In this document: one piece after another, positions 6,579 to 63,131 of the stretch
How positions within the stretch are numbered: the stretch's first letter is position 1
Layout: each line of letters starts with the position of its first letter
From: an uncultured Gammaproteobacteria bacterium
GTDB taxonomy: Bacteria; Pseudomonadota; Gammaproteobacteria; Steroidobacterales; Steroidobacteraceae
Direction: 5' to 3'
DNA: 64,000 bases
Assembly (NCBI GenBank): GCA_963774865.1
Contig: CAVZGU010000013.1
Location: 11,894 to 75,893 of the forward strand
Translations under genes and position numbers: made by a program
Notes under the pieces: model-generated
Seen by the model: the letters and a program-made list of their open reading frames with translations, nothing else
Database searches by the model: none
What the model was told of the DNA's origin: nothing

Positions 6579-7486
6579 GGGGCTCGAGCACGCTCTGCGC
6601 GGCCGCAGTCTGCGCCGCGGCTCTTTGCCTGCCCTGCGCTCGGGCGTTCGCCTGGGGCGATGAAGGCCACGAGGTGATCGGGCTGATCGCGGACCACTAC
6701 CTCAGGCCGGCGGTTCGCCGGCGGGTGCAGGCCCTGCTCGAGGGCGACGAGTCGGGGCTCACGGCCAAGGACATCGCGCACGAGGCGACCTGGGCGGACA
6801 AGTACCGCGATTCGGACCGCAACTCCGCCGGGGTCCGCTACGCGCAAACGCGCGGCTGGCATTTCGTGGATCTCGAACTGGCGGGAGCCGACATCCGCCG
6901 CGCCTGCTTCGGCCGGCCTGCACTGGCGCCCGGGACCGACGCGTCCGCGGGCCCCTCGCAGGACTGCGTGATCGACAAGATCGACGAATTCACCGCCGAG
7001 CTTAAGGATCCCGGCACCGACGAGCGGGAGCGCCGTCTCGCGCTGCAGTTTTTGCTGCATTTCGTCGGCGATGTGCACCAGCCGCTGCACGCGAGCGACG
7101 ATCACGACCAGGGCGGAAACCGCAAGATCGCGAGCGCGCCCGGAATCGGCGCCGACAATCTGCACCATGACTGGGACACCGAATTCGTCGCGCGCCTGGG
7201 AAAGGACGCAGCCGACATCGCGGCGCGGCTGATCGCCCGCATCACCGCCGCAGAGCGCGCGCGCTGGTCCGCCGGCACGCCCGCGGAGTGGGCCATGGAA
7301 ACCTACGATGTGGCAAAATCGCACGCCTATGGCCTGCTGCCGCCGGCGGATTCGTGGAATCGCTACGCGCTTTCCGCTGCCTATGTGGCCGATGCGACCG
7401 CGGTGACGGCCGAGCAGCTCAGCAAGGCCGGCGTGCGCCTTGCGTTCGTGTTGAATCAGTCGCTGCGCCAGGAGCCCGCCCGATGA
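6575..7486 (+). CDS. S1/P1-family zinc nuclease, secreted
   Basis: GTG at 6575 overlaps the TetR stop (GTGA). Signal peptide, then the mature N-terminus WGDEGHEVIGLIADHYL. Motifs HFVGDVHQPLH and NLHHDWDT match remembered S1/P1 zinc-ligand motifs. Confidence 0.8.
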   Translation: MRGSSTLCAAAVCAAALCLPCARAFAWGDEGHEVIGLIADHYLRPAVRRRVQALLEGDESGLTAKDIAHEATWADKYRDSDRNSAGVRYAQTRGWHFVDLELAGADIRRACFGRPALAPGTDASAGPSQDCVIDKIDEFTAELKDPGTDERERRLALQFLLHFVGDVHQPLHASDDHDQGGNRKIASAPGIGADNLHHDWDTEFVARLGKDAADIAARLIARITAAERARWSAGTPAEWAMETYDVAKSHAYGLLPPADSWNRYALSAAYVADATAVTAEQLSKAGVRLAFVLNQSLRQEPAR

Positions 7487-43789: not shown

Positions 43790-43981
43790 CCAGATTCGCT
43801 GCGTGCCCCAGGGTCCCGGCTGTACAGCGGCTCGGCGTCACCCAATCGGCGGTCAGCCATCTGCTCAACAAACTGCGCCTCATCACCGGGGATGCGCGCC
43901 CGCGATCAGCGGGACCCGGCGCACGCCTGGGTGCGCGAGCAACTGCTGTCGTGTGTGCCGCCCGCGCTGGGCGAGGTCTAG
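43790..43981 (+). pseudogene. LysR-family regulator remnant (HTH fragment fused to a C-terminal tail)
   Basis: [23 protein letters not shown] (a LysR HTH recognition helix) is followed in another frame by [25 protein letters not shown]-stop. The ~250 codons of effector domain are missing. Confidence 0.5.
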
Positions 43982-43985
43982 GCTC

Positions 43986-44351
43986 CTAGGGTCCGCGCAG
44001 ACTGAGGATGTAGGTCACGACGTCGGCGATCTGGGAATCGGTCAACGCCGGATTGGGCATCGTCAGAGGCAGAGTCTTCTCGTCCCAGTGGGTGGCCGCG
44101 ACGAAATGCCGCAGCGCTTCGCGCGTCGATTCCGGCCGGTTGGCGATGTCGGCGAACGGCGCAGCCGCAGGATTGAGCAGCGGCGGGAACTCCTGGTCCG
44201 AAGCGACCACGTGGCAGGCGGAGCAGATGCCAAGAGCGAGCTTGCGCCCGTGCGCCGCCCGCCGATCGGAGGCTTTATCGGCAGCCGCAGCGGCGGCGCT
44301 CAGGGCGATGAGGCCCGGCAGCAGCATCAGGTTGCGGATCCGATCGGACAT
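43986..44351 (-). CDS. Small periplasmic monohaem c-type cytochrome
   Basis: Intact 121-aa ORF with a signal peptide and CSACH. Confidence 0.75.
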
Positions 44352-44447
44352 CGTGTGAAATACTATAAGCGAGATTCCACGCCCACCGGGCGGGGTTCCG
44401 GCCGGCGCGTTATGCTTCGTCCCCCACAGTCTCCAGACCAGGCCGCT

Positions 44448-45651
44448 ATGCGTCTATCGTCCATTCCTGCTGCGCGGTGGCTTTGCAGGGCGTCGCGGCT
44501 CGCGGTACTCGCGTCGCTCGCCGCGGCGGCGGCCTGCGGGGGCAAGGCCGCCGGGCCGCCGGCACCGCAGACGGTGGCGACGCTGACCATGCGGCCTCAA
44601 CCCACGTCGCTGACGCAGGAGTACCCGGCGCAGCTCGAGGCCTCGAACACCGTCGAGATCCGCCCGCAGGTCGTCTGGAATTCTCTACCGGCAGGCGGCG
44701 CTCGAGGGCGCGCCGGTCAAGCACGGCGAAGTGCTGTTCGAGATCGATCCGCAGCCTTACGCCGCCGCACTCGCCCAGGCGCAGGCGGGGCTCGCCCAGG
44801 CGCACGCGGCAGAAGCGCAGGCCACGCGCGATTTGGCCCGTGCGCGCCCGCTGACGGCGATCGACGCGTTGAGCCAGAGGGAGCTCGATGCGGCGATCGC
44901 CGCCAATGCCTCGGCGCAGGGCCTGGTGAAGGCCGCGGAGGCGGCGGTGAAGACGGCGGAGCTCAACCTCAATTACACCCAGGTCCGCTCGCCCATCGAC
45001 GGTGTGATGAGCCGGGCGCTGATCCGCATCGGCGGAGTGGTCACCGCGTACACAACGCTGCTGACCACCGTCTACCAGACCGATCCGATGTATGCGAACT
45101 TCAGCGTCGGGGAGCAGCGCCTGCTGCAGGTGCAGCGCGAGCTGGGCCGTCCGCTCGACCAGCACAATCCCAGCCAGCGCGAGTTCCGGATCCTGCTTGC
45201 CGACGGCAGCGAGTACGAGCTTCCCGGAAAGATGAATTTCATCGACGCCGCCGTCGACCTGCGCACCGACACGCTGCGCGCTGCGCCTCACGGTGCCGAA
45301 CCCGAAGCAGTTCCTGCACGCCGGACAGTACGTCAAGGTGGTCGGTCGCGACGCGCGAGCGCCCAAACGCGCTGCTCGTTCCGCAGCGCGCGGTGCAGGT
45401 GCTGCAGGACAAGCACTTCGTCTGGATCGTGGACCAGCTCCGGCAAGGCGACAGCAGCGCGACGTCAAGATGGGCCAGCAGCAGGGCAGCGACTGGGTGG
45501 TCGAGGGGGCCTCGCGCCGGGCGACGTGGTGGTCGTGGACGGCACGCAGAAGCTCAAACCCGGCACGCCGGTGCGGGCGGAACCCCTGCGCGAGACGCCG
45601 GTGCGGGCGGCGCCGACCGGCCCGCCCGCGGCGGGGCCGCGCGCCTCATGA
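44448..45651 (+). pseudogene. RND efflux periplasmic adaptor (MexA/AcrA family), multiply frameshifted
   Basis: Lipoprotein N-terminus [30 protein letters not shown]. Segments [23 protein letters not shown]...[51 protein letters not shown] and [18 protein letters not shown] are in different frames. At least 5 frame changes. Confidence 0.8.
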
Positions 45652-48600
45652 GCAATTTCTTCATCGACCGGCCGATCTTCGCGACGGTGCTGGCGATCGT
45701 CATCACGCTCGCGGGCACCATCGCGTTTCTGCTGCTGCCGGTGGCGCGCTTCCCGCAGATCACGCCGCCGATCGGTAGTCGTCGCGGCGACCTTCCCCGG
45801 CGCCGATGCCTCGACCATCGAGCAGTCGGTGGCGGCGCCGATCGAGACGCAGGTGAACGGCGTTCCGAACATGATCTACATGGACTCGAAGAGCTCCAAC
45901 GACGGCTCCTACACGCTCAACGTCACCTTCGAGGTCGGCACCGACCAGGACATCGCCGCGGTCGACGTGCAGAATCAGGTCGCCATCGCCCAGCGGCAGC
46001 TGCCTGCCGGACGTGCTGCGCCAGGGCGTGTCCATCACCAAGCGCCAGCCGCAGCCGCTGATGTTCATGCGCCATCGAGGCGACCGATCCGCGCTACGAC
46101 TACCTGTTCCTCAGCAACTTCGCGACGCTGCAGGTGTACGACTCGCTGGCGCGCGTCCGCGGCGTCGGCCAGGTGCAGCAGTTCGGCGCGCGCGACTACG
46201 GCATGCGCATCTGGCTCGACCCGGGCAAGATGGCGCGCCTCGGCGTCACCACCCAGCGACATCACGCAACGCCATCAACGAGCAGAACGTGGTCGCGCCG
46301 GCCGGCATCGTCGGCGCCGAGCCGGCGCCGCCCGGCCAGCAGATGACCTACACGGTGACCGTGCACGGGCGCCTGAGCAAGCGTGGAGGAGTTCGAGAAC
46401 ATGGTGCTGCGCGCCGGCCCCAACGGCGCGATCGTGCGGCTGCGCGACGTCGCCCGCATCGAGCTCGCCGCCACCGACTACACGCGCTCGAGCCGGCTGA
46501 ACGGCCAGGCCGGTGGCGCTGCTCGGCATCTATCAGCTGCCGGACGCGAATGCGCTCGAGGTCGAGCAAGCAGGTGCGCGCCGACGCTCGAGACAGCTGT
46601 CGCACCGCTTCCCGCCCGGCATTCGCTACGACCATCCCGCTCGACACCTCGGAGTTCGTCCGCGAGTCGATCAAGGAAGTCGAGATCACGCTGTTCATCG
46701 CCGCGGCGCTGGTGCTGCTGGTCGTGTTCCTGTTCCTGGAGAGCTGGCGCGCGACGCTGATTCCGATGCTGGCGGTGCCGGTGTCGCTGCTCGGCACCTT
46801 CACGCATCTTCGTCGGCCCTCGGCTTCTCGATCAACACGCTGACGCTGTTCGCGCTGGTGCTCGCGATCGGCATCGTGGTCGACGATGCGATCGTCGTGG
46901 TCGAGGCGGTGACCGAGAAGATGGAGGAGCAAGGGCCTCGATCCGCGCGCAGCCACGCGCGCGGCGATGGCGGACGTGTCGAGCCCGGTGATCGCGATCG
47001 CGCTGGTGCTGGCCGCGGTGTTCGTGCCGGTGGCGTTCCTCGGCGGCCTGACCGGCCAGTTCTACAAGCAGTTCGCGCTGACGCTGTCGGTGTCGGTGCT
47101 GATCTCGGCGCTCATCGCGCTGACCTTCACGCCGGCGATGTGCGCGCTGCTGCTTGAAGCCGCGCTCGGAGACCGAGCCGCCGCGCGGCCTGCTCGGGCG
47201 CGGTTTCGCCGCCTTCAATCGTGGTTTCGCGCGAGCCACCAAGCAGTACACGGGCACCGTGCGCCGCGCGATTCGCCGCTCGGCGATCGCGCTCGGCGTG
47301 TTCGGCGCGATCATCGTCGCCGCTGGCGCTGCTGGTGTGGCAGCGGCCCGGCGGGTTCCTGCCCGAGGACGACCAGGGCTACCTGCTCTGGTTACGCAGC
47401 TGCCGCCCGGCGCATCGCTCCAGCGCACCGAGGCGGTGCTCGAGAAGATCGCGCGACGATCGTCAGCAAGCAGCCGGAGGTGCACGAGCATGCTCGCCAT
47501 CACGCGGGCTCAACCTGCTCGCTCAGGTCAACGACGCCGTACACCGGCTCCGGATTCATCCCGTTGAAGCCCTGGTCGCAGCGGCCGGGCGCGGCAGAGC
47601 TCGGCGCAGGCGCTGATCCGAGCGGCTGTACAAGCTGCTCGGCCGATCAAGGAGGCCAATGTCGTGGTCGTCGCGCCGCCGGCGATCCCCGGCATCGGCC
47701 AGGCGGGCGGCTTCGAGTTCATGCTCGCGGACACCTCCGGCGGCAGCCTCGAGAACTTCCCGCGGCAGATCCAGGATTTCCTCGCCGCAGGCCAACAAGC
47801 GCCAGGAGCTCGCGCGCGTCTCGACCCAGTTCAACGACTCGCGTGCCGCAGATCGAGTACGTGGTCGACCGCGACCGGGCCAGTGCGCTCGGCATCCCGA
47901 TCTCGGACATCTTCTTCGCGCTGCAGACCTTCCTCGGCGGCAACTACATCAACGACTTCAATCTGTTCGGGCGCACATTCCGCGTCACCGCCGAGGCCGA
48001 GGGTTCGGCGCGCACGCTGCCCGATGCGGTCAACGCGCTCTACGTGCGCACGCAGGCCGGCGACATGGTGCCGCTGTCCTCGCTGGTGTCGATCAAGCCG
48101 ACGCCGCGGCCCGGCCTACATCGAGCGCTACAACGTGTACCGGGCGGCGACCATCAACGGCGCGCCGGCTCCCGGGTACAGCCAGGGCGAGGCGATCGAT
48201 GCGATGGAGGATCGCTCGCCAAGGCGCTGCCCGGCAACCTCACCTACGACTGGACCGGGTCGGTGTTCCAGGAGAAGCGCGCGGGCAGCCAGGCGCCTTA
48301 TATCTTTGCGATGGCGCTGGTGTTCGTGTTTCTGGTGCTCGCCGCGCAGTACGAGAGCTGGGTCGTGCCGTTCGCGGTCATCCTGTGCATCCCGTTCGCC
48401 GTGTTCGGCGCGTTCCTCGGCCTGTCGCTGCGCGGCATGGCGAACAACATCTACGCGCAGGTCGGGCTGGTGATGCTGATCGGACTGGCGGCCAAGAACG
48501 CGATCCTGATCGTCGAGTTCGCGAGCCTGTCGCACGAGCGCGGCATGCCGATCATCGAGGCCGCGATCGACGGCGCGCGGCTGCGCCTGCGGCCGATCCT

Positions 48601-48860
48601 GATGACCTCGTTCGCGTTCATCCTGGGCGCGCTGCCGCTTGCGATCGCCACCGGCGCCGGCGCCAGGTCGCGCGCAGGTGCTCGGCACGACGGTGGTGTT
48701 CGGCATGATGGCCGCGACCATGATCGGCATCTTCATCGTGCCGGTTTTCTACGTCGTTCTGCAGGGCCTCGTCGACCGCTTCTCCAAATCGCACGGCCGC
48801 GCGACGCCCGCGCCCGCGGCCGGCACCGCGCCCGCGGCGGGCACTGAGCCCGAGGCATGA
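45648..48860 (+). pseudogene. RND inner-membrane transporter (AcrB/MexB family), multiply frameshifted
   Basis: Starts [41 protein letters not shown] and ends VLGTTVVFGMMAATMIGIFIVPVFYVVLQGLV. Dozens of family-typical segments alternate among the three frames. At least 15 frame changes. Confidence 0.85.
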
Positions 48861-54355: not shown

Positions 54356-56387
54356 ATGAATGCCATAATCAAGCCCCTCCCCGTCGAGCGCAGCAAGCTG
54401 GCCAATGCGCTGCGCTTCCTGGCGATCGACGCCGTCGAGGCCGCGAAGAGCGGCCATCCCGGCATGCCCATGGGCATGGCCGAAATTGCCGAGGTGCTCT
54501 GGCGCCGATTTCTCAAGCACAATCCGGCGGACCCGCACTGGCCCGATCGCGATCGCTTCATGCTGTCCAATGGTCACGGCTCGATGCTGCTGTATGCGCT
54601 GCTGCACCTCACGGGCTACGCGCTGCCGCTGGAGGAGCTGAAGCGCTTTCGTCAGCTGCACAGCAAAACCCCCGGTCATCCCGAAGTGGACGTGACGCCG
54701 GGCGTGGAAACCACCACGGGCCCGCTCGGCCAGGGATTGGCGAATGCGGTCGGCATGGCTCTGTCCGAGCAATTGCTGGCGGCCCACTTCAACCGGCCCG
54801 AGCACACCATCGTCGATCATCGCACCTGGGTATTCGTCGGCGATGGATGCCTGATGGAGGGCATCAGCCACGAGGCCTGTTCACTGGCCGGCACGCTGGG
54901 GACTGTCGAAGCTGATTGCCGTCTACGACGACAACGGCATCAGCATCGATGGGCACGTGGAGCATTGGTTCACCGACGATACGCCCAAGCGCTTCGAGGC
55001 GTACGGCTGGCGCGTCATCCGCAACGTCGATGGCCACGACACGGCGGCCGTCGAGGCCGCTTTGAAGAAGGCGTGCAAGCCGGGCGGCCAGCCGACCCTG
55101 GTGTGCTGCAAGACCGTCATCGGCAAGGGAAGCCCGAACAAGGCCGGCACGCACGATGTGCACGGTGCCGCGCTGGGCGCTGCCGAGGCCGCCGCGACCC
55201 GCGCGGCGCTCGGCTGGACGGCCGGGCCATTCGAGATCCCGGAGGAGATTCGCGACGCATGGGATGGCCGCGCGATTGGCGCCAAGCGGCAAGCCGACTG
55301 GCAGCGCCGCTTCGCGGCTTACGCGCAGGCGCACCCCGGTCTCGCCGCCGAGTTCGAACGTCGCGTGTCGTCGCGCCAGTTGCCTGCCGGCTGGCCGACT
55401 GCGACCACAGAAGCGCTCGCCAAGGTGGTCGCGAGCCGCGCCGGCGTGGCATCACGCAAGGCCTCGCAGAACGCGCTCGAGGCCCTGCAGCCGCTGCTGC
55501 CCGAGCTGCTGGGCGGCTCGGCTGACTTGGGCGGGTCGAATCTCACCGAAGTCAAGGGCAGCGTTCCGGTGCGCGGCGATCATTGGGGCAACTACATCAA
55601 CTACGGTGTGCGCGAGTTCGGCATGAGTGCCGTGATGAACGGGATCGCATTGCACGGGGGGTTCATCCCCTACGGCGGAACCTTTCTCACGTTTTCCGAT
55701 TACAGCCGCAACGCCGTGCGCATGTCCGCGCTGATGCGCAAGCGCGTCATCTATGTGTTCACCCACGACAGTATCGGGCTCGGCGAAGACGGTCCGACGC
55801 ATCAGCCGATCGAGCATGTTTCCAGCCTGCGATTGATCCCCCACAACGCCGTGTGGCGGCCTTGCGATGCCGCGGAGACCATGATTGCGTGGATTGCGGC
55901 CATCGAACGGCGCGACGGCCCGACGTGCCTGATCCTGTCGCGGCAAAACCTGCCGCACTTCGATCGTCAAGCGCAGCAGATCAGCGATATCCGCAAAGGC
56001 GGGTATGTGTTGGCCGACGGTGAGGGCGCCGCCGTGACGCTGCTCGCCACCGGTTCGGAAGTGGCGCTGGCCATGCAGGCACGCGATGCGCTGGCCGCGG
56101 AGGGAATATCCGCCCGTGTCGTCTCGATGCCGAGCTGCGATGAGTTTGACCGGCAGAGCGCCGAGTACCGGGCGAGCGTGCTGCCGCGCGCAGTGCCGGT
56201 GCTCGCCATCGAGGCGGGCGTCACAGCGCCTTGGCGCGCCTATACCGGCTTCGACGGCGACGTAATCGGCATCGATCGATTTGGCGAATCCGCGCCGGCC
56301 GCACACGTTGCCGAGGCGCTCGGCTTGACAGTGCAGGCGGTTACCGCGCGTGCGCGACGGCTCGCGCAAAGCGCGCGGCGGCAATGA
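54356..56387 (+). pseudogene. tkt: Transketolase, single frame change at the G4 run 54898-54901
   Basis: N-terminal part ...[20 protein letters not shown]...[21 protein letters not shown]. It continues as [23 protein letters not shown] in the frame of ORF 54957..56387. G3 instead of G4 would restore [16 protein letters not shown]. Confidence 0.9.
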
Positions 56388-58236: not shown

Positions 58237-58407
58237 TCAACCGGGATCGTCCGGTGCTCGAGGCGGGCTCGGCGGAGGATCAGCGGGCTTGGCGGGTTGC
58301 TGCGGCACAAGATCCTCTTTCTTTTTCTTGTCGGCAGGCTTTGGAGCGGCCAGGGCAACGAAGAGGATGGCCAGTACAAACAGTATGACACTGATCGTTT
58401 CAATCAT
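58237..58407 (-). CDS. 56-aa single-pass membrane micro-protein with a Pro/Lys-rich tail
   Basis: ATG at 58407 is preceded by AAAGGA 7 nt upstream. Translation MIETISVILFVLAILFVALAAPKPADKKKKEDLVPQQPAKPADPPPSPPRAPDDPG. It is below the ORF-track cut-off. It lies divergent from the cytochrome cluster. Confidence 0.4.
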   Translation of the reverse strand: MIETISVILFVLAILFVALAAPKPADKKKKEDLVPQQPAKPADPPPSPPRAPDDPG

Positions 58408-58695: not shown

Positions 58696-59445
58696 ATGCG
58701 TTCATTCCTCGGTGGGTCCATCGTCGCTTCGCTGCTGGCGGGCGTCGCAGTGCTGTTTTCCTTCAATGCGCTTGCCATGGAGATGCCCGGCTTGCCCGAC
58801 GCGAACATTGCCAATGGCAAGAAGATTTTCAATGAGGGCAAGGGCGACACGGTACCCGCCTGCATGACCTGTCATGGAGCCGGCGGCTGGGGTATGGACG
58901 CCATGGGGGCCCCCCGTCTGGCGGGTATCGGCTATCCTTACGTGGTCAAGCAATTGTCCGATCTGGCGAGCGGCAAGCGCACGCCTGCGGGGGCCGGCGC
59001 CGTCATGGTGGTATTTGCCGGTGGGTTGACCGAGCAGGAGCGGCGCGATGTGGCCGGCTATGTCGACACGCTGGGCGGCCCGCCGGATTTGTCCGATCTC
59101 AAAGCACTGAAGGAGTCCGGGACGGCAATCGGCGAGAGATACCTTGGTGAGGCCATTGTAAAATATGGGGTTTATGGCAAGGTGTCGGCCTGCTCTTCGT
59201 GCCATGGCTTTAACGGTCGCGGAGCGGCGCCGCTGTTTCCGGTGATCGGGGAGCAGAAGTACACGTATCTCGTGACGCAGCTGAACTCCTGGCGCGACGA
59301 AAGCCGCACCAATGATCCCTACGCCATGATGCGCAAGATGGCGCATAATTTGACTGATGCGGATATCGCCAACGTCGCCACCTTTCTGGCATCGGCGCCG
59401 CCCACTACGAGCGGGAATACCATGATTCCGGTAACTGATGAATGA
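58696..59445 (+). CDS. Dihaem c-type cytochrome (c4-like), secreted
   Basis: ATG at 58696 follows AAGGAAGGGGGG. A signal peptide and two haem motifs, CMTCH and CSSCH, in two similar halves. Confidence 0.8.
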   Translation: MRSFLGGSIVASLLAGVAVLFSFNALAMEMPGLPDANIANGKKIFNEGKGDTVPACMTCHGAGGWGMDAMGAPRLAGIGYPYVVKQLSDLASGKRTPAGAGAVMVVFAGGLTEQERRDVAGYVDTLGGPPDLSDLKALKESGTAIGERYLGEAIVKYGVYGKVSACSSCHGFNGRGAAPLFPVIGEQKYTYLVTQLNSWRDESRTNDPYAMMRKMAHNLTDADIANVATFLASAPPTTSGNTMIPVTDE

Positions 59446-59517
59446 TCGATCGCTTGCACTTCACCGCAGCGTCCGACATCGGGAGAATCATCGGGTAGCG
59501 ACCGCGGACGATCGTCC

Positions 59518-60096
59518 ATGAAGAACAGCGGCCTGCGATTGGGCGAAAAGGTGCTGTTCGGCATTGCCGCGGCTTTCGTGCTGGTTGCGGTCATGAGCTT
59601 CATTGCCATGGAGGTCTACCGCGTGCACTCCGGCAAGAAGATGTATGCGTCGAGCACGCATTTCGACTTTTCGCAGGAAGGGCTCGTTGGGTCGGAGCGC
59701 TTCCGCGATCTGGGCTGCACCAGCTGTCATCGCGCGGTGCGCAACGGCACCAACAACGGGGTGAACCTGGACGGCATCGGTTCCAAGCGCAGTCTGGATT
59801 ATCTGATCGCCTTCCTGCATAAGCCGGAGGCCACCTACGGGTCCCCAACGATGGACCATGGCCCCGACAAGGGCGCGGCCTATGTCGCAAGTTTGCCGGA
59901 GCAGGACCTGCATTCCCTGGCCGTTTTTCTCTCGGAGTTGAAGGCGACCCAAGGATCGCCCGATGCGCGCCTGCCGTCGGAGGGGCGCTCCGGCTTCATC
60001 GATGAAATGGTGAAGATTTGGGCGCCGTCCACATGGAAGTCGCAATACCATGATGTGCGAGAGGAAGGTAAACCCGGGAGCAGCGCAAATCGATAG
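59518..60096 (+). CDS. Membrane-anchored monohaem c-type cytochrome (FixO/CcoO- or NorC-like layout)
   Basis: One N-terminal TM helix (VLFGIAAAFVLVAVMSFIAM), then GCTSCH about 45 aa later, then NLDGIGSKRSLDYLIAFLHKPEATYGSPTMD. This resembles the remembered CcoO pattern (CxxCH ... L..vG.r.s..w...hl.nP......S.MP). Confidence 0.65.
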   Translation: MKNSGLRLGEKVLFGIAAAFVLVAVMSFIAMEVYRVHSGKKMYASSTHFDFSQEGLVGSERFRDLGCTSCHRAVRNGTNNGVNLDGIGSKRSLDYLIAFLHKPEATYGSPTMDHGPDKGAAYVASLPEQDLHSLAVFLSELKATQGSPDARLPSEGRSGFIDEMVKIWAPSTWKSQYHDVREEGKPGSSANR

Positions 60097-60097
60097 C

Positions 60098-60607
60098 GTG
60101 ACCGAAACACCCGCATCCCCGCCCGGGATCGACGACCGCGAATACACGCGCATGACACTGCTGTTCGTTTATGCATGCATCGTGTACTCCATCATCGGCT
60201 TTTCATGGGGGGCCGTGATGGGAGGCGTCCCGGTGCTGCGCATGTTCGTCGATACGGCGCCCCACGGGCACTTGATCTTGCTGGCGCATGGACACATCAA
60301 CCTCCTGGGCTGGGTTGAAATGGCCATTTTCGGCTCAATTTATTATTTCATTCCGCGCCTTGTGAAGCGTCCGATCTACAGCCTGCGCCTGGTCAAGGTT
60401 CACTTCTGGATGCACAACATCGGGCTCGTCTCGATGGTTGTTCTGTTCACACTGGCAGGCGTCATCGGCGGCTATGATCCGGGTCCGCAGGTTGAGCGCA
60501 CCGTTTCACACCTGATGGCCGCGGTCGGCTCCTTCGGTATGCTCGTGCTGCTGGCGAATATCATTTGGGGATACAACATCTACATGACGAGCCGAGGGAA
60601 TACGTGA
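60098..60607 (+). CDS. 4-TM membrane protein resembling one third of a cbb3-type haem-copper oxidase subunit I (paralogue 1)
   Basis: ORF 60050..60607. Likely starts are GTG 60098 (2 nt after the upstream TAG) or ATG 60152. Four hydrophobic helices. Core LAHGHINLLGWVEMAIFGSIYYFIPRLVKRPIYSLRLVKVHFW (60281-60409). The stop overlaps the next start (GTGA). Confidence 0.6.
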   Translation: MTETPASPPGIDDREYTRMTLLFVYACIVYSIIGFSWGAVMGGVPVLRMFVDTAPHGHLILLAHGHINLLGWVEMAIFGSIYYFIPRLVKRPIYSLRLVKVHFWMHNIGLVSMVVLFTLAGVIGGYDPGPQVERTVSHLMAAVGSFGMLVLLANIIWGYNIYMTSRGNT

Positions 60608-61119
60608 GACCCTTGCAGGCCGCACGGGTACTGGCGGCGGTCCTGACGCTGATGGCGCTGAGCGCCTGCGACAGTCGCGCGCAGCAGTCCCACAATGCTT
60701 CGCTCGCCCTGCAGATCGGCGAGCCGGCACCGCGGGTGCACACGAAGACTCTGAACGATGTCGGCGGGGATGTTTCCCGCATTACCACGTATCGCCAGCC
60801 GGACGAGCGGATGTATCAATATTCCGTGGACCAGGCGCTCGTCAGCGGCAAGCCGGTCTTGCTTGAATTCGCCACGCCGGCGCACTGCACTCCCTGTGAT
60901 CGGCAGCTGCAGATGATCAAGTCGCTGTTGCAGAAGTACCAGGGGAAGATGATTTTCATCCACATGGATCAATACGACAATCCGGAAGCCTACAAGGCGT
61001 ACCATGTGCCCGGCGACCCGTGGACATTCGTCATCGACCGCCGGGGCGTCGTACGCTTTGAGCAAGCCGGCTCGATGCTGTACGGCGAGATCGAAGATGC
61101 CATCCAGAGTGCGCTCTAG
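60604..61119 (+). CDS. Thioredoxin-fold lipoprotein (TlpA/ResA-like thiol:disulfide oxidoreductase)
   Basis: GTG at 60604 gives VRPLQAARVLAAVLTLMALSACDS (lipobox LSAC). Active-site-like VLLEFATPAHCTPCDRQ (CxxC). Confidence 0.65.
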   Translation: MRPLQAARVLAAVLTLMALSACDSRAQQSHNASLALQIGEPAPRVHTKTLNDVGGDVSRITTYRQPDERMYQYSVDQALVSGKPVLLEFATPAHCTPCDRQLQMIKSLLQKYQGKMIFIHMDQYDNPEAYKAYHVPGDPWTFVIDRRGVVRFEQAGSMLYGEIEDAIQSAL

Positions 61120-61136: not shown

Positions 61137-61622
61137 ATGAGCGTTGGAAGACCCTTGAGCGTTGGAACACGCTACACGCTGAGCCGTGATTATCGGGGGA
61201 TGTACTGGGATGCGCTGCTGTATGTGCCCACCGTTTCGGCGCTGGCGGTTTTTGCCACCAGCAGCTGGTACGACGGCAAGACCCCGGTGGCGTACTTGCT
61301 CGGCTTCCTGGCGTGTTTCTTTCTAATCGCGGGAGCCAATCGCATCCTGACGACGCGTCTGATGTGGCTGCCCTCCGCACCGGTCGCCATCGAGACGCGG
61401 GCCAACGCCGCCGACTTGATCCTGAAGAGCGGTGAGGTCATAAAATTGCAGCGCGACGTGAAATTGTACCGGGATCGAGCGGGCCGATCGTTCGGCCTGA
61501 CGGGAGTGAGCGAGGACGGGACGCGCCGCCAGTTCGTTTTCCATCGCGGGCAATTCAAACAGGACAGCGATTTTCAAGCGGTGATGAATTGCTACGACCG
61601 CGCTCAAGCTGGCAAGGCATAG
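61137..61622 (+). CDS. Hypothetical membrane protein (2 TM plus a soluble C-terminal domain)
   Basis: Intact 161-aa ORF. Hydrophobic stretches LLYVPTVSALAVFATSSW and VAYLLGFLACFFLIAGA. No known motif. Confidence 0.45.
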   Translation: MSVGRPLSVGTRYTLSRDYRGMYWDALLYVPTVSALAVFATSSWYDGKTPVAYLLGFLACFFLIAGANRILTTRLMWLPSAPVAIETRANAADLILKSGEVIKLQRDVKLYRDRAGRSFGLTGVSEDGTRRQFVFHRGQFKQDSDFQAVMNCYDRAQAGKA

Positions 61623-61691: not shown

Positions 61692-63131
61692 TTGGTTGGA
61701 CTCATTTTGCGCACGGGCCCCTACGGGCTCAGCGAGGAAGGGGCCAAAGCGTTGCTGGTCGCGTGGTCCGTCGGCGATGCGGTGGCGAGCGCCGCTTTCA
61801 CCCTGGGGGCGCCTGACATCCGCGCGATATTTTTCCTGCCGCTGGGCTTTTTGCTGCCCGGCCGGGTGATTGCCGCCAAGGTGCTGACGCTGCTGATCAC
61901 GGCGGGAGCGGGAGTCGCTCTGTATCGCTGGCGCCGCCGCGACGACCAGGTCGAAGCCGCATTGCTGGCGACCGGACTGCTGCTGATCGCACCGCTGAGC
62001 ATTGACAGCATAAACTCGCTATCCGCAGCGCCTTTTTTGCTTGCGATTTTCGGAGCGGCCGCCTGGCTGAACCGCATGCTGCTGGGCGAGCGCGCAACAT
62101 TCGGCGGCTCGTTCTTCGCCCAACTGCTTGCTTGTGCGGCTGCGGTCTCTTTGCATCCTGCGGGCATCGCTTATCCGGCAGTTCTCTTTGTCACCTGGTG
62201 GCGCCACCCGCCGGACCAGCGGCACCGCGGACATTTTTTGGCGGGCATTCCGCTGGTGGTGCTGCTCGTGCTGACGATGCGACTCGGCTGGAGCGGCATG
62301 GTCTGGTGGCAGAATCCGCTGCCCGCCGCCGCGGCCGTTTTTCTCGGCAGCCGCGCCGAGGATGCGCTGTCCAGCGTGGAGTGGCTCGGTGGCCTTGCGC
62401 TGATCGCCTTGACCGCGGCGGTGGCGCTGCACGAGGGCGGGCGCCTGCTGGCAGATCTGACCGGCGGCGCGCTGCTTCTCGGCGTGCTGTGCGGGGCCGT
62501 GGCCGCCGATCGAACCTGGGGGATGCTGATGCTTGCCCTGCTGCTCTACGGAGGGATGCCGTGGCTGCTGCGCTCGTGTGCGCCGCTCGCCGGGCGCGGC
62601 CTGCTCGTCGAGAGGGGATGGCTCTGGCTGCTGCTGCTGCTGATCTGTACCGCGTTCATGCGCAGGGACCGGAGCGACTATGAGGCGGGACACCGCCATC
62701 TCCTGTCCGCCGAGGACCAGTTGATCAGCGACTTTGCAGAAGGCCTAAGCAGTATTCGGAGCGGCAACGGCGCGGGACAGGGACATTCTGCGGCGCCGAT
62801 CCTCGTGGCGAGCTCGTGGCCCGCACGTACCTCGATCGCCTGTCGATGCGACGGACTGCCGCTGCCTCCGGCGGCGAAGGATCCGGAAAGCCAGCTGGCC
62901 ATGATGCGCGGCGTATCGTACGTGATACTTGCCGGCAACACGGACAATCTCGCCCTGGCGAGAAATTTTGCGCAGCTTGGGCAGCGGATCGAGGTCCTTT
63001 CCCGGCAGCCTGGCGGCGTCATCCTGCACTTCAGGGCGCCGGCAGCGCAGCCGCCGGTAGTGCAGCCGCCCGTAGTGCAGCCGCCGGTAGTGCAGCCGCT
63101 GGCAGTGCAGCCGACCGCAGTGCAGCTCTGA
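61692..63131 (+). CDS. Large polytopic membrane protein (>=9 TM) with a C-terminal periplasmic-type domain and a (QPPVV)n tail; GT-C/ArnT-like topology, function unknown
   Basis: Intact ORF in the same frame as, and immediately after, the upstream stop (61620-61622). The true start may be upstream of TTG 61692 (ATC/ATT/CTG codons only). Many Leu/Ala-rich helices, and charged loops (WWRHPPDQRHRGH). Confidence 0.5.
   Translation: MVGLILRTGPYGLSEEGAKALLVAWSVGDAVASAAFTLGAPDIRAIFFLPLGFLLPGRVIAAKVLTLLITAGAGVALYRWRRRDDQVEAALLATGLLLIAPLSIDSINSLSAAPFLLAIFGAAAWLNRMLLGERATFGGSFFAQLLACAAAVSLHPAGIAYPAVLFVTWWRHPPDQRHRGHFLAGIPLVVLLVLTMRLGWSGMVWWQNPLPAAAAVFLGSRAEDALSSVEWLGGLALIALTAAVALHEGGRLLADLTGGALLLGVLCGAVAADRTWGMLMLALLLYGGMPWLLRSCAPLAGRGLLVERGWLWLLLLLICTAFMRRDRSDYEAGHRHLLSAEDQLISDFAEGLSSIRSGNGAGQGHSAAPILVASSWPARTSIACRCDGLPLPPAAKDPESQLAMMRGVSYVILAGNTDNLALARNFAQLGQRIEVLSRQPGGVILHFRAPAAQPPVVQPPVVQPPVVQPLAVQPTAVQL
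63048..63122 (+). repeat. Five tandem 15-bp units (consensus CAGCCGCCGGTAGTG) encoding QPPVV QPPVV QPPVV QPLAV QPTAV
   Basis: Read directly. The units start at 63048, 63063, 63078, 63093 and 63108. The last two have diverged. Confidence 0.9.

Follow-up and report, generated by a model that had tools for sequence, protein, structure and literature searches.

We analysed a 64,000-nucleotide stretch of DNA from an uncultured gammaproteobacterium of the Steroidobacteraceae (assembly GCA_963774865.1, contig CAVZGU010000013.1, positions 11,894 to 75,893; hereafter the window), in which four genes on the plus strand form a compact cytochrome c and thiol-redox cassette. Gene A (58696–59445) encodes a predicted periplasmic dihaem cytochrome c4 of the Cyc1 type, 249 aa long, with an N-terminal hydrophobic signal and the motifs CMTCH and CSSCH. 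Gene B (59518–60096) encodes a membrane-anchored monohaem cytochrome c of 192 aa with an N-terminal transmembrane (TM) segment and a CTSCH motif, and P1 (60098–60607) encodes a 169-aa protein with four TM helices, related to a single module of haem–copper oxidase (HCO) subunit I. Gene D (60604–61119) encodes a 171-aa periplasmic thioredoxin-fold lipoprotein with the lipobox LSAC and the motif HCTPCD. The TAG stop codon of B (60094–60096) precedes the GTG start of P1 (60098–60100), and the GTGA at 60604–60607 joins the stop of P1 to the overlapping GTG start of D, 5 nt upstream of which lies the Shine–Dalgarno sequence GAGGGA. These genes, motifs and junctions agree in every position with a first-pass annotation made from the letters of the window alone. 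An in-frame ATG at 60050, which is the start called in the sister contig L087, would extend P1 into a 47-nt overlap with B; P1 homologues mostly start near the GTG position, and the B/P1 junction is tight under either start. Scanning for promoters and terminators between 58.2 and 64 kb yielded no signal exceeding shuffled controls. Downstream of D the window encodes three further proteins, E, F and a second four-TM relative of P1, termed P2, and no full-length HCO subunit I is encoded between 58696 and 64000.

Sampling at one genome per species gave 395 places encoding a relative, and the best 80 loci were taken. Of the species-representative loci, 72 had enough flanking sequence, and in all 72 the genes A, B, P1 and D were colinear; the carriers were Steroidobacteraceae-like gammaproteobacteria (the gamma lineage), Ferrovaceae and Gallionellaceae. 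The gap between the stop of B and the start of P1 ranged from −23 to +22 nt in nearly all loci, and the 4-nt stop/start overlap of P1 and D recurred in 41. The arrangement is far beyond chance. The four genes, whose synteny the first-pass annotation had left to be examined, are co-conserved, and together they make up a conserved operon that is compact at the level of translation, in line with the co-translation it had read from the junctions. Closest to the window is locus L001, at 98% identity. The ratio of nonsynonymous to synonymous substitution rates (dN/dS), computed against five relatives, was 0.05–0.24 for the four cassette genes, with P1 in the lowest range (0.08–0.12), 0.11–0.18 for P2 and 0.15–0.32 for E. 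The 747 homologues of P1 are uniform in length at about 170 aa, and 33 columns of the P1 alignment are invariant across lineages. Automatic annotation names the ~170-aa P1 and P2 proteins cbb3 subunit I, as might be expected if ccoN had been duplicated and they were its decaying pieces, with the genes of the cassette neighbours by chance. That explanation, in which P1 and P2 are degenerate duplicates and which the first-pass annotation had raised against its own proposal, is scarcely credible. Both genes are under strong purifying selection and are therefore working genes rather than decayed remnants, and the conservation data, namely synteny in all 72 loci, dN/dS of about 0.1, the invariant columns and the uniform length of the homologues, exclude it.

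P1 matched the Pfam COX1 profile (PF00115) at 56.2 bits against a cut-off of 34.8, the match covering only profile positions 310–405 of 436, and reached 47 bits against TIGR00780, for which the equivalog cut-off is 583. Its best solved matches were cbb3 CcoN chains (E about 5e-13; 3mk7_A, E 6e-13), and in the alignment to CcoN H64 and H66 of P1 fell on H345 and H347, and H56 on H337. The AlphaFold2 (AF2) model of P1 consists of four long helices and one short one (predicted local distance difference test score, pLDDT, 79), and its top Foldseek matches were CcoN, NorB and ba3 subunit I (query TM-score, TMq, 0.6–0.68). By the COX1 match, the CcoN alignment and Foldseek, P1 is a relative of HCO subunit I, as its first description as an HCO-fragment-like protein had proposed. 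P2 (63432–63968, plus strand, 178 aa) reached 36.6 bits against COX1, above the cut-off, and is 34% identical to P1. Where a subunit I would have twelve TM helices, P1 has four within its 169 residues and aligns as a single repeat. In the orthologue alignments the invariant histidines are H56, H64xH66, H102 and H106 in P1 and H32, H57 and H64xH66 in P2. The invariant HxH of P1, equivalent to that of helix 10, would provide haem ligands; the helix-2 partner is absent from the same chain, and another subunit would be needed to supply it. H102 aligned with H243 of the HFW motif rather than with H257/H258 and, like H106, maps to the third helix at its cytoplasmic end, away from the level of the haem. 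Alignment of P1 and P2 to CcoN revealed no CuB ligand set, there being no HH pair at the equivalent position and no cross-linked tyrosine. P1 would therefore not be an oxidase on its own.

Comparison of the P1 profile by hhalign with a full-length CcoN encoded in synteny with the cassette gave three non-overlapping matches, at CcoN residues 322–451 (probability 97.8, E 1e-12), 18–126 (probability 78.8, E 2e-5) and 167–294 (probability 77.8, E 2e-5). CcoN of P. stutzeri was likewise matched three-fold. P1 scored 89, 94 and 168 against the repeats, whereas the repeats scored only 52–68 against one another. In the P. stutzeri protein, the residues aligned with H64 and H66 of P1 were H60 and N62 in repeat 1, Y205 and H207 in repeat 2, and H345 and H347 in repeat 3. 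As judged from these alignments, P1 is one free-standing copy of a four-helix unit of which HCO subunit I contains three. In the literature searched, nothing relevant was found on triplication of subunit I at the sequence level, nor on DUF2871; as far as that literature reaches, both the reading of P1 as a single module and the evidence on histidine pairing given below appear to be new.

In P. stutzeri CcoN we take haem b to be ligated by H60 with H347, haem b3 by H345, and CuB by H207, H257 and H258, the haem b3/CuB site thus presumably pairing H345 with H207. Placed on the repeat alignment, these ligands yield a rule by which the second histidine of repeat n and the first of repeat n+1 form one cofactor site. 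A profile search of 1.84 billion representative proteins recovered 1345 relatives, the best 150 of which were classified; among these 150, about 65 were single-module proteins, 54 of them with both histidines, and many were three-module proteins of 400–1100 aa. With modules separated by slashes, the three-module histidine pattern was HH/HH/HH in 14 cases, xH/HH/Hx in 18 (mostly NH/HH/HQ) and HH/HH/HQ in 3, and all the remaining proteins had the Hx/xH/HH of canonical oxidases. The two histidines missing from each of the two asymmetric patterns make up just such a pair, the second of module n and the first of module n+1. Among 43 informative representatives, which are not phylogenetically independent, 20% of sites were unpaired under this rule, compared with 57–62% under other pairings. 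We regard the pattern of histidine loss as supporting evidence for the pairing rule, not as a probability; such correlated loss would place the haem sites between modules.

Examples of three-module proteins, 420–1100 aa long and mostly from Chloroflexia, are P0248, P0252, P0256, P0274 and P0265 and the genes at 7001–8974 of L090 and 7001–9190 of L091; they bear the annotation cbb3 subunit I, lie last in COX1–FixO operons, and depart from canonical oxidases in their histidine patterns, HH/HH/HH or xH/HH/Hx. The proteins with the pattern xH/HH/Hx come from Chloroflexia, are annotated as cbb3 subunit I and are encoded at the end of COX1–FixO operons. Like P1 and P2, the Chloroflexia proteins (650–730 aa; for example P0248, P0445 and P0471) carry the four-helix module with its HxH; they are encoded with C-family oxidase genes. 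Unlike P1, they hold three modules in one chain with a C-terminal extension, and their pattern would give two complete sites; unlike the window, their loci have no adjacent c4, monohaem c or thioredoxin gene. On the strength of the fused three-module chains and the pairing rule, P1 and P2 probably act as trimers carrying bis-histidine b haems between their subunits.

We then turn to the two cytochromes that precede P1. Gene A matched Pfam Cytochrom_C at 71 bits and, among solved proteins, cytochromes c4 (6q2u_A, E 4e-22; 1h1o_A, the A. ferrooxidans c4, E 4e-20; 1etp_A, E 1e-19), each alignment consisting of two matched stretches, as expected of two class-I domains. Both CxxCH motifs are conserved in 79 orthologues. 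By these solved matches, A is a genuine cytochrome c4, and the c4-like dihaem label it had first been given was apt. CcoP was considered as an identity for A and rejected, the protein reaching 40 bits against TIGR00782 (cut-off 180); A is instead of the soluble c4/Cyc1 type. For B, the only Pfam match was Cytochrom_C (PF00034, 27.8 bits). Its hydrophobic segment spans residues 12–33 and its CTSCH residues 67–71, and across 80 orthologues C67, C70, H71 and H114 never vary, while conservation of M164 is 97%. The FixO/NorC-like layout that the first-pass annotation had seen in B is present as topology, with an N-terminal anchor and one periplasmic CxxCH, but not as detectable homology: the Pfam scan gave no match to the FixO profile (PF02433), and the Protein Data Bank (PDB), in which CcoO and NorC chains are present, held no relative below E 0.4. 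A paralogous origin of B from CcoO was also rejected, since BLASTP against the syntenic distal CcoO gave E 0.13 and neither Pfam nor PDB lent it support.

D matched Pfam AhpC-TSA at 29.2 bits and Thioredoxin at 28.1 bits, both above cut-off, and its HCxxCD is invariant in 81 orthologues and its lipobox cysteine present in 71 of 78. Against more specific models its scores were low (ResA, 25.8 bits with a cut-off of 170; DsbE, 18–21 bits with cut-offs of 123–359), and its best PDB matches were classical thioredoxins. D was rightly recognised as a thioredoxin-like lipoprotein, and it is periplasmic and conserved, but generic thioredoxins fit it better than the TlpA family first suggested, or than ResA or DsbE. 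The next gene, E (61137–61622, plus strand), encodes a small membrane protein of 161 aa and is usually found 3′ of D; it comes after D in 71 loci, is missing from a subset of gamma-lineage loci, and matched nothing in Pfam or NCBIfam. F (61692–63131, plus strand) encodes a polytopic membrane protein of 474–479 aa with a predicted fold like that of C-type glycosyltransferases (GT-C). Its sequence matched nothing in Pfam, NCBIfam or the PDB sequences, and its AF2 model (pLDDT 77) had STT3, AftA, ALG12 and ArnT as top Foldseek matches (probability 1.0, TMq 0.4–0.48). Across 73 loci F occurs in the neighbourhood of the cassette, and most of those in Ferrovaceae and Gallionellaceae carry it on the other strand. 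An invariant WSxGD stands close to its N-terminus, and F would place a glycosyltransferase-like protein within a respiratory cluster. The C-terminus of F (63060–63131) consists of a Pro/Val/Gln repeat (QPPVV three times, QPLAV and QPTAV) that is not conserved among orthologues.

Upstream of the cassette lies a Calvin-cycle operon (RPE, FBPase, PRK, TKT, FBA and a HAD phosphatase). The flank beyond the 3′ end of the window was read from the sister contig L087, which is 98% identical (its relative of F is 94% identical). There (L087 12165–21386; L085 13303–20528) two small membrane proteins and a divergent polyferredoxin of CcoG/FixG type (the CcoG-like protein) are encoded on the opposite strand after P2, followed by an iron–sulfur protein of high potential (HiPIP) and a complete operon for alternative complex III (ACIII). 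The HiPIP gene past P2 weakly matched the Iro iron oxidase (NF041615, E 3e-6), and the CcoG-like orthologues (L085, L086) carry Fer4_5 and Fer4_18 and matched TIGR02745 at E 4e-37 and 128 bits, below the equivalog cut-off. In Ferrovum, HiPIP and ACIII genes stand divergently immediately upstream of A, and E, a 67-aa protein, F and a second dihaem cytochrome are encoded downstream; Ferrovaceae have no P2 or CcoG-like gene near the cassette. Most Gallionellaceae loci read A-B-P1-D-E followed by the gene h67 and F on the opposite strand, and in many of them P2, two small proteins and the CcoG-like gene come further on. No full-length ccoN occurs within 10 kb in Ferrovaceae or the gamma lineage; the lack of a full-length catalytic subunit reported by the first-pass annotation holds for the window and for up to 10 kb downstream in the sister contig. 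Eleven Gallionellaceae or Nitrosomonadales loci (L045, L057, L062, L067, L068, L070, L073, L076, L077, L078 and L080) carry, at a distance of 1–4 kb from the cassette, a full-length gene for a divergent 468-aa CcoN-like protein, which scored 255 bits against COX1 and 224 bits against TIGR00780, the latter below the equivalog cut-off; in the loci checked, a gene for a 318-aa CcoO-like protein follows it. The cassette is thus the front end of a larger conserved region comprising E, F, P2, the CcoG-like gene, HiPIP and ACIII, rather than the stand-alone miniature cassette first envisaged, and a distal ccoN–ccoO pair lies 1–4 kb away in Ca. Tenderia and some Gallionellaceae.

Several further features of these loci were observed. 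The C-terminal helix of the 468-aa CcoN-like protein, NIIWLYNMWMTAR, closely resembles that of P1, NIIWGYNIYMTSR. A 139-aa protein encoded next to the CcoG-like gene was considered as a paralogue of the protein encoded after the distal CcoO and rejected, as the two share only a short FPxWGxRP motif (E 0.006 in a single comparison). Between the cbb operon and A, a 56-aa open reading frame (ORF) on the minus strand (58237–58407) encodes one hydrophobic helix with a Pro/Lys-rich tail; it is called as a gene in L087, and other lineages have unrelated tiny ORFs at that place. In the window, the transketolase (54356–56387) and an AcrB-type resistance–nodulation–division (RND) pump (43803–48847) are each split over two overlapping or separated ORFs, and in L001 it is B and D that appear split instead; these splits look like long-read assembly frameshifts rather than pseudogenes.

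The region has a described counterpart in Ca. Tenderia electrophaga, where Tel_00405–Tel_00520 encode a di-heme c, a monoheme c, a ‘truncated CcoN’, a thioredoxin, unknown proteins, CcoN, CcoO, CcoG and a second ‘truncated CcoN’ (Eddie et al. 2017, PMC5371394; 2022 preprint, 10.1101/2022.05.06.490989). The same authors noted its conservation in freshwater iron oxidisers and proposed ‘a sort of alternative complex IV’ (PMC5371394; 10.1101/2022.05.06.490989). The window follows the Tenderia order, with A, B, P1, D and P2, and in L087 a CcoG-like gene after P2. Protein sizes also correspond, at 247/190/174/164/151 and 172 aa in Tenderia and 249/192/169/171/161 and 178 aa in the window, the equivalence being one of order, size and annotation (ALP51722–ALP51725), compared by lengths and labels. 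Unlike the lineage of the window, Tenderia has a distal CcoN (468 aa, Tel_00440) and CcoO between the cassette and the second truncated CcoN. The Tenderia homologues are expressed, that of A, ‘Cyc1’ (Tel_00405), very highly: the reported log counts per million (logCPM) are 12.4 for Cyc1, 9.3 for the monohaem cytochrome and 8.7 for the truncated CcoN, the latter two labelled ‘Complex IV (1)’, and 13.7 for the full CcoN. In S. lithotrophicus, the Cyc1 homologue Slit_2657 stands at the 98th–99th expression percentile. The operon has therefore been noticed in the literature but never characterised, and the window adds a new lineage to it.

Other published genes bear on the cassette to different degrees. 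The Ferrovum JA12 genome paper names one ccoN (FERRO_02570) and, beside it, one ccoO (FERRO_02560), and states that subunit III is missing. The 195-aa P1 homologue of JA12 is annotated as cbb3 subunit I and stands in cassette context in JA12-type contigs, and the published Ferrovum ‘cbb3 oxidase’ therefore very probably consists of cassette genes. The Ferrovum PN-J185/JA12-type contigs L081, L088 and L089 encode a 190-aa cytochrome c and this 195-aa P1 homologue of the cassette. Compared with the ccoNOQP operon (P. stutzeri, 3MK7), P1 is homologous to CcoN helices 9–12 and keeps the equivalents of H345 and H347, an anchored monohaem c and a dihaem c stand alongside it, and a CcoG-like gene is nearby. 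In contrast to that operon, the window has a P1 of 4 rather than 12 helices that lacks CuB ligands, a B with no match to FixO and an A that is soluble instead of an anchored CcoP; CcoQ is lacking and the gene order differs. The ‘miniature cco operon’ of the first-pass annotation thus stands as an analogy but not as an identity, as B, A and D did not match the specific families that it would imply. The irc cluster of Gallionellaceae (Slit_1321–1324; cytochrome b561, hypothetical protein, monohaem c and dihaem c), whose expression responds to Fe(II), follows the same logic of dihaem c, monohaem c and membrane haem protein and occurs in the same organisms. It was rejected as an identity for the cassette and is a separate cluster, for it lacks a thioredoxin and has cytochrome b561 in place of a COX1-like module. 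The marker genes CDS17–20 of Kato et al. 2015 are likewise unrelated to the cassette.

We favour, at a probability of roughly 0.45, the interpretation that this conserved operon encodes a small module for electron transfer, bound to the membrane, within the respiratory chain of Fe(II)- and electrode-oxidising autotrophs; a periplasm-facing module with P1 as its membrane partner is the best, if unproven, reading. In this scheme, A, as a soluble Cyc1-type c4, would collect periplasmic electrons and pass them to the anchored B, which would sit on a P1 oligomer and hand them to haem-bearing P1. P1, and P2 also, would assemble as trimers, with the second histidine of one module and the first of the next clamping b-type haems at the interfaces. 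As maturation proceeds, D probably keeps cysteines in the periplasm reduced, either so that haem c can be attached or for the delivery of metal. The module would act with the neighbouring ACIII, HiPIP and CcoG-like protein, and with the distal cbb3 where present, which would place it where the periplasmic cytochrome pool meets ACIII or distal cbb3. The analysis shows the conservation of the operon, the homologies, the conserved ligands and the purifying selection; haem binding, trimer formation, the direction of electron flow and the final acceptor are what we infer here. The genomic context supports the scheme, with ACIII and HiPIP adjacent in Ferrovum and the gamma lineage and the CcoG-like gene beside P2. 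Several observations weigh against it. B has no detectable homology to CcoO or NorC in Pfam, PDB or BLASTP comparisons; its docking on P1 is deduced from gene adjacency; and P1 was predicted as a monomer, its haem and oligomeric state coming from outside the model. In Tenderia, B and P1 transcripts lie ~30-fold below those of Cyc1 and the distal CcoN, a level as compatible with an accessory role as with a relay. Neighbours such as the thioredoxin, CcoG-like and GT-C-like genes are of a kind known from biogenesis clusters, and the fused Chloroflexia protein stands at the end of a ccoN–ccoO operon without a cytochrome c partner of its own.

In the main alternative explanation, P1 and P2 are assembly or maturation factors for a C-family oxidase, mimics of helices 9–12 that hold haem b/b3 or copper ready for insertion, with D, the CcoG-like protein and the GT-C-like protein as helpers and only A and B as true electron carriers. 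A CcoG-family cupric-reductase-like protein (TIGR02745, E 4e-37) is conserved beside P2, a periplasmic thioredoxin is built into the operon, F is a GT-C-like neighbour, P1/P2-type modules occur beside full-length ccoN–ccoO in Tenderia, some Gallionellaceae and Chloroflexia, and the ~30-fold lower level of P1 transcripts relative to the distal CcoN in Tenderia would be natural for such a factor. However, Ferrovaceae and the gamma lineage have no full-length ccoN within 10 kb, the invariant pairing of P1 with a dedicated membrane cytochrome c and its five invariant histidines exceed what is seen in known assembly factors such as CcoS or CcoH, and the fused three-module forms with paired histidine sites resemble stable haem proteins rather than chaperones. 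We consider an assembly role unlikely, while giving it serious weight. Quite improbable, in our estimate, is the view that B, P1, P2 and their partners in the extended cluster form by themselves a terminal reductase of O2 or NO, an ‘alternative complex IV’ that would be the sole cytochrome c oxidase in Ferrovum. Such a role was proposed by Eddie et al. for Ca. Tenderia; the JA12 paper lists only FERRO_02570 and FERRO_02560 as cbb3, with the P1 homologue so named; the extra invariant histidines of P1 (H56, H102 and H106) could bind metal; and the copper-linked CcoG-like protein is nearby. Yet an equivalent of the CuB ligands (the helix-7 HH pair and the cross-linked tyrosine) is missing, H102 and H106 lie off the haem level at the cytoplasmic end of the third helix, and in Ferrovaceae neither P2 nor the CcoG-like gene stands near the cassette.

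Within the favoured reading of an electron-transfer module, a more specific proposal can be made tentatively, and we hold it to be rather doubtful as a whole: P1 and P2 would be free-standing modules of the unit triplicated into HCO subunit I, forming homo- or heterotrimers with up to three interface bis-histidine b haems and, together with the anchored cytochrome c, a minimal cytochrome-c-oxidising complex of ancestral type, which may be what has been called cbb3 in Ferrovum.

The hand-over of electrons from periplasmic cytochromes to the inner membrane is still an open question in both neutrophilic and acidophilic iron oxidisers, and the cassette pairs the Cyc1-type c4, which is found in every pathway model, with dedicated and unstudied membrane partners. 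Our analysis also indicates that this operon has been mis-annotated as a full cbb3 oxidase. With P1-type proteins annotated as cbb3 subunit I, metabolic reconstructions and environmental surveys of metagenome-assembled genomes (MAGs) may credit organisms with an oxidase that they lack, and published respiratory models of Ferrovum may rest on such a mis-annotation. If the single-module proposal is true, the haem and copper sites of oxidases would have arisen from a symmetric trimer, and the single- and three-module relatives described here would give a testable picture of the origin of HCOs.

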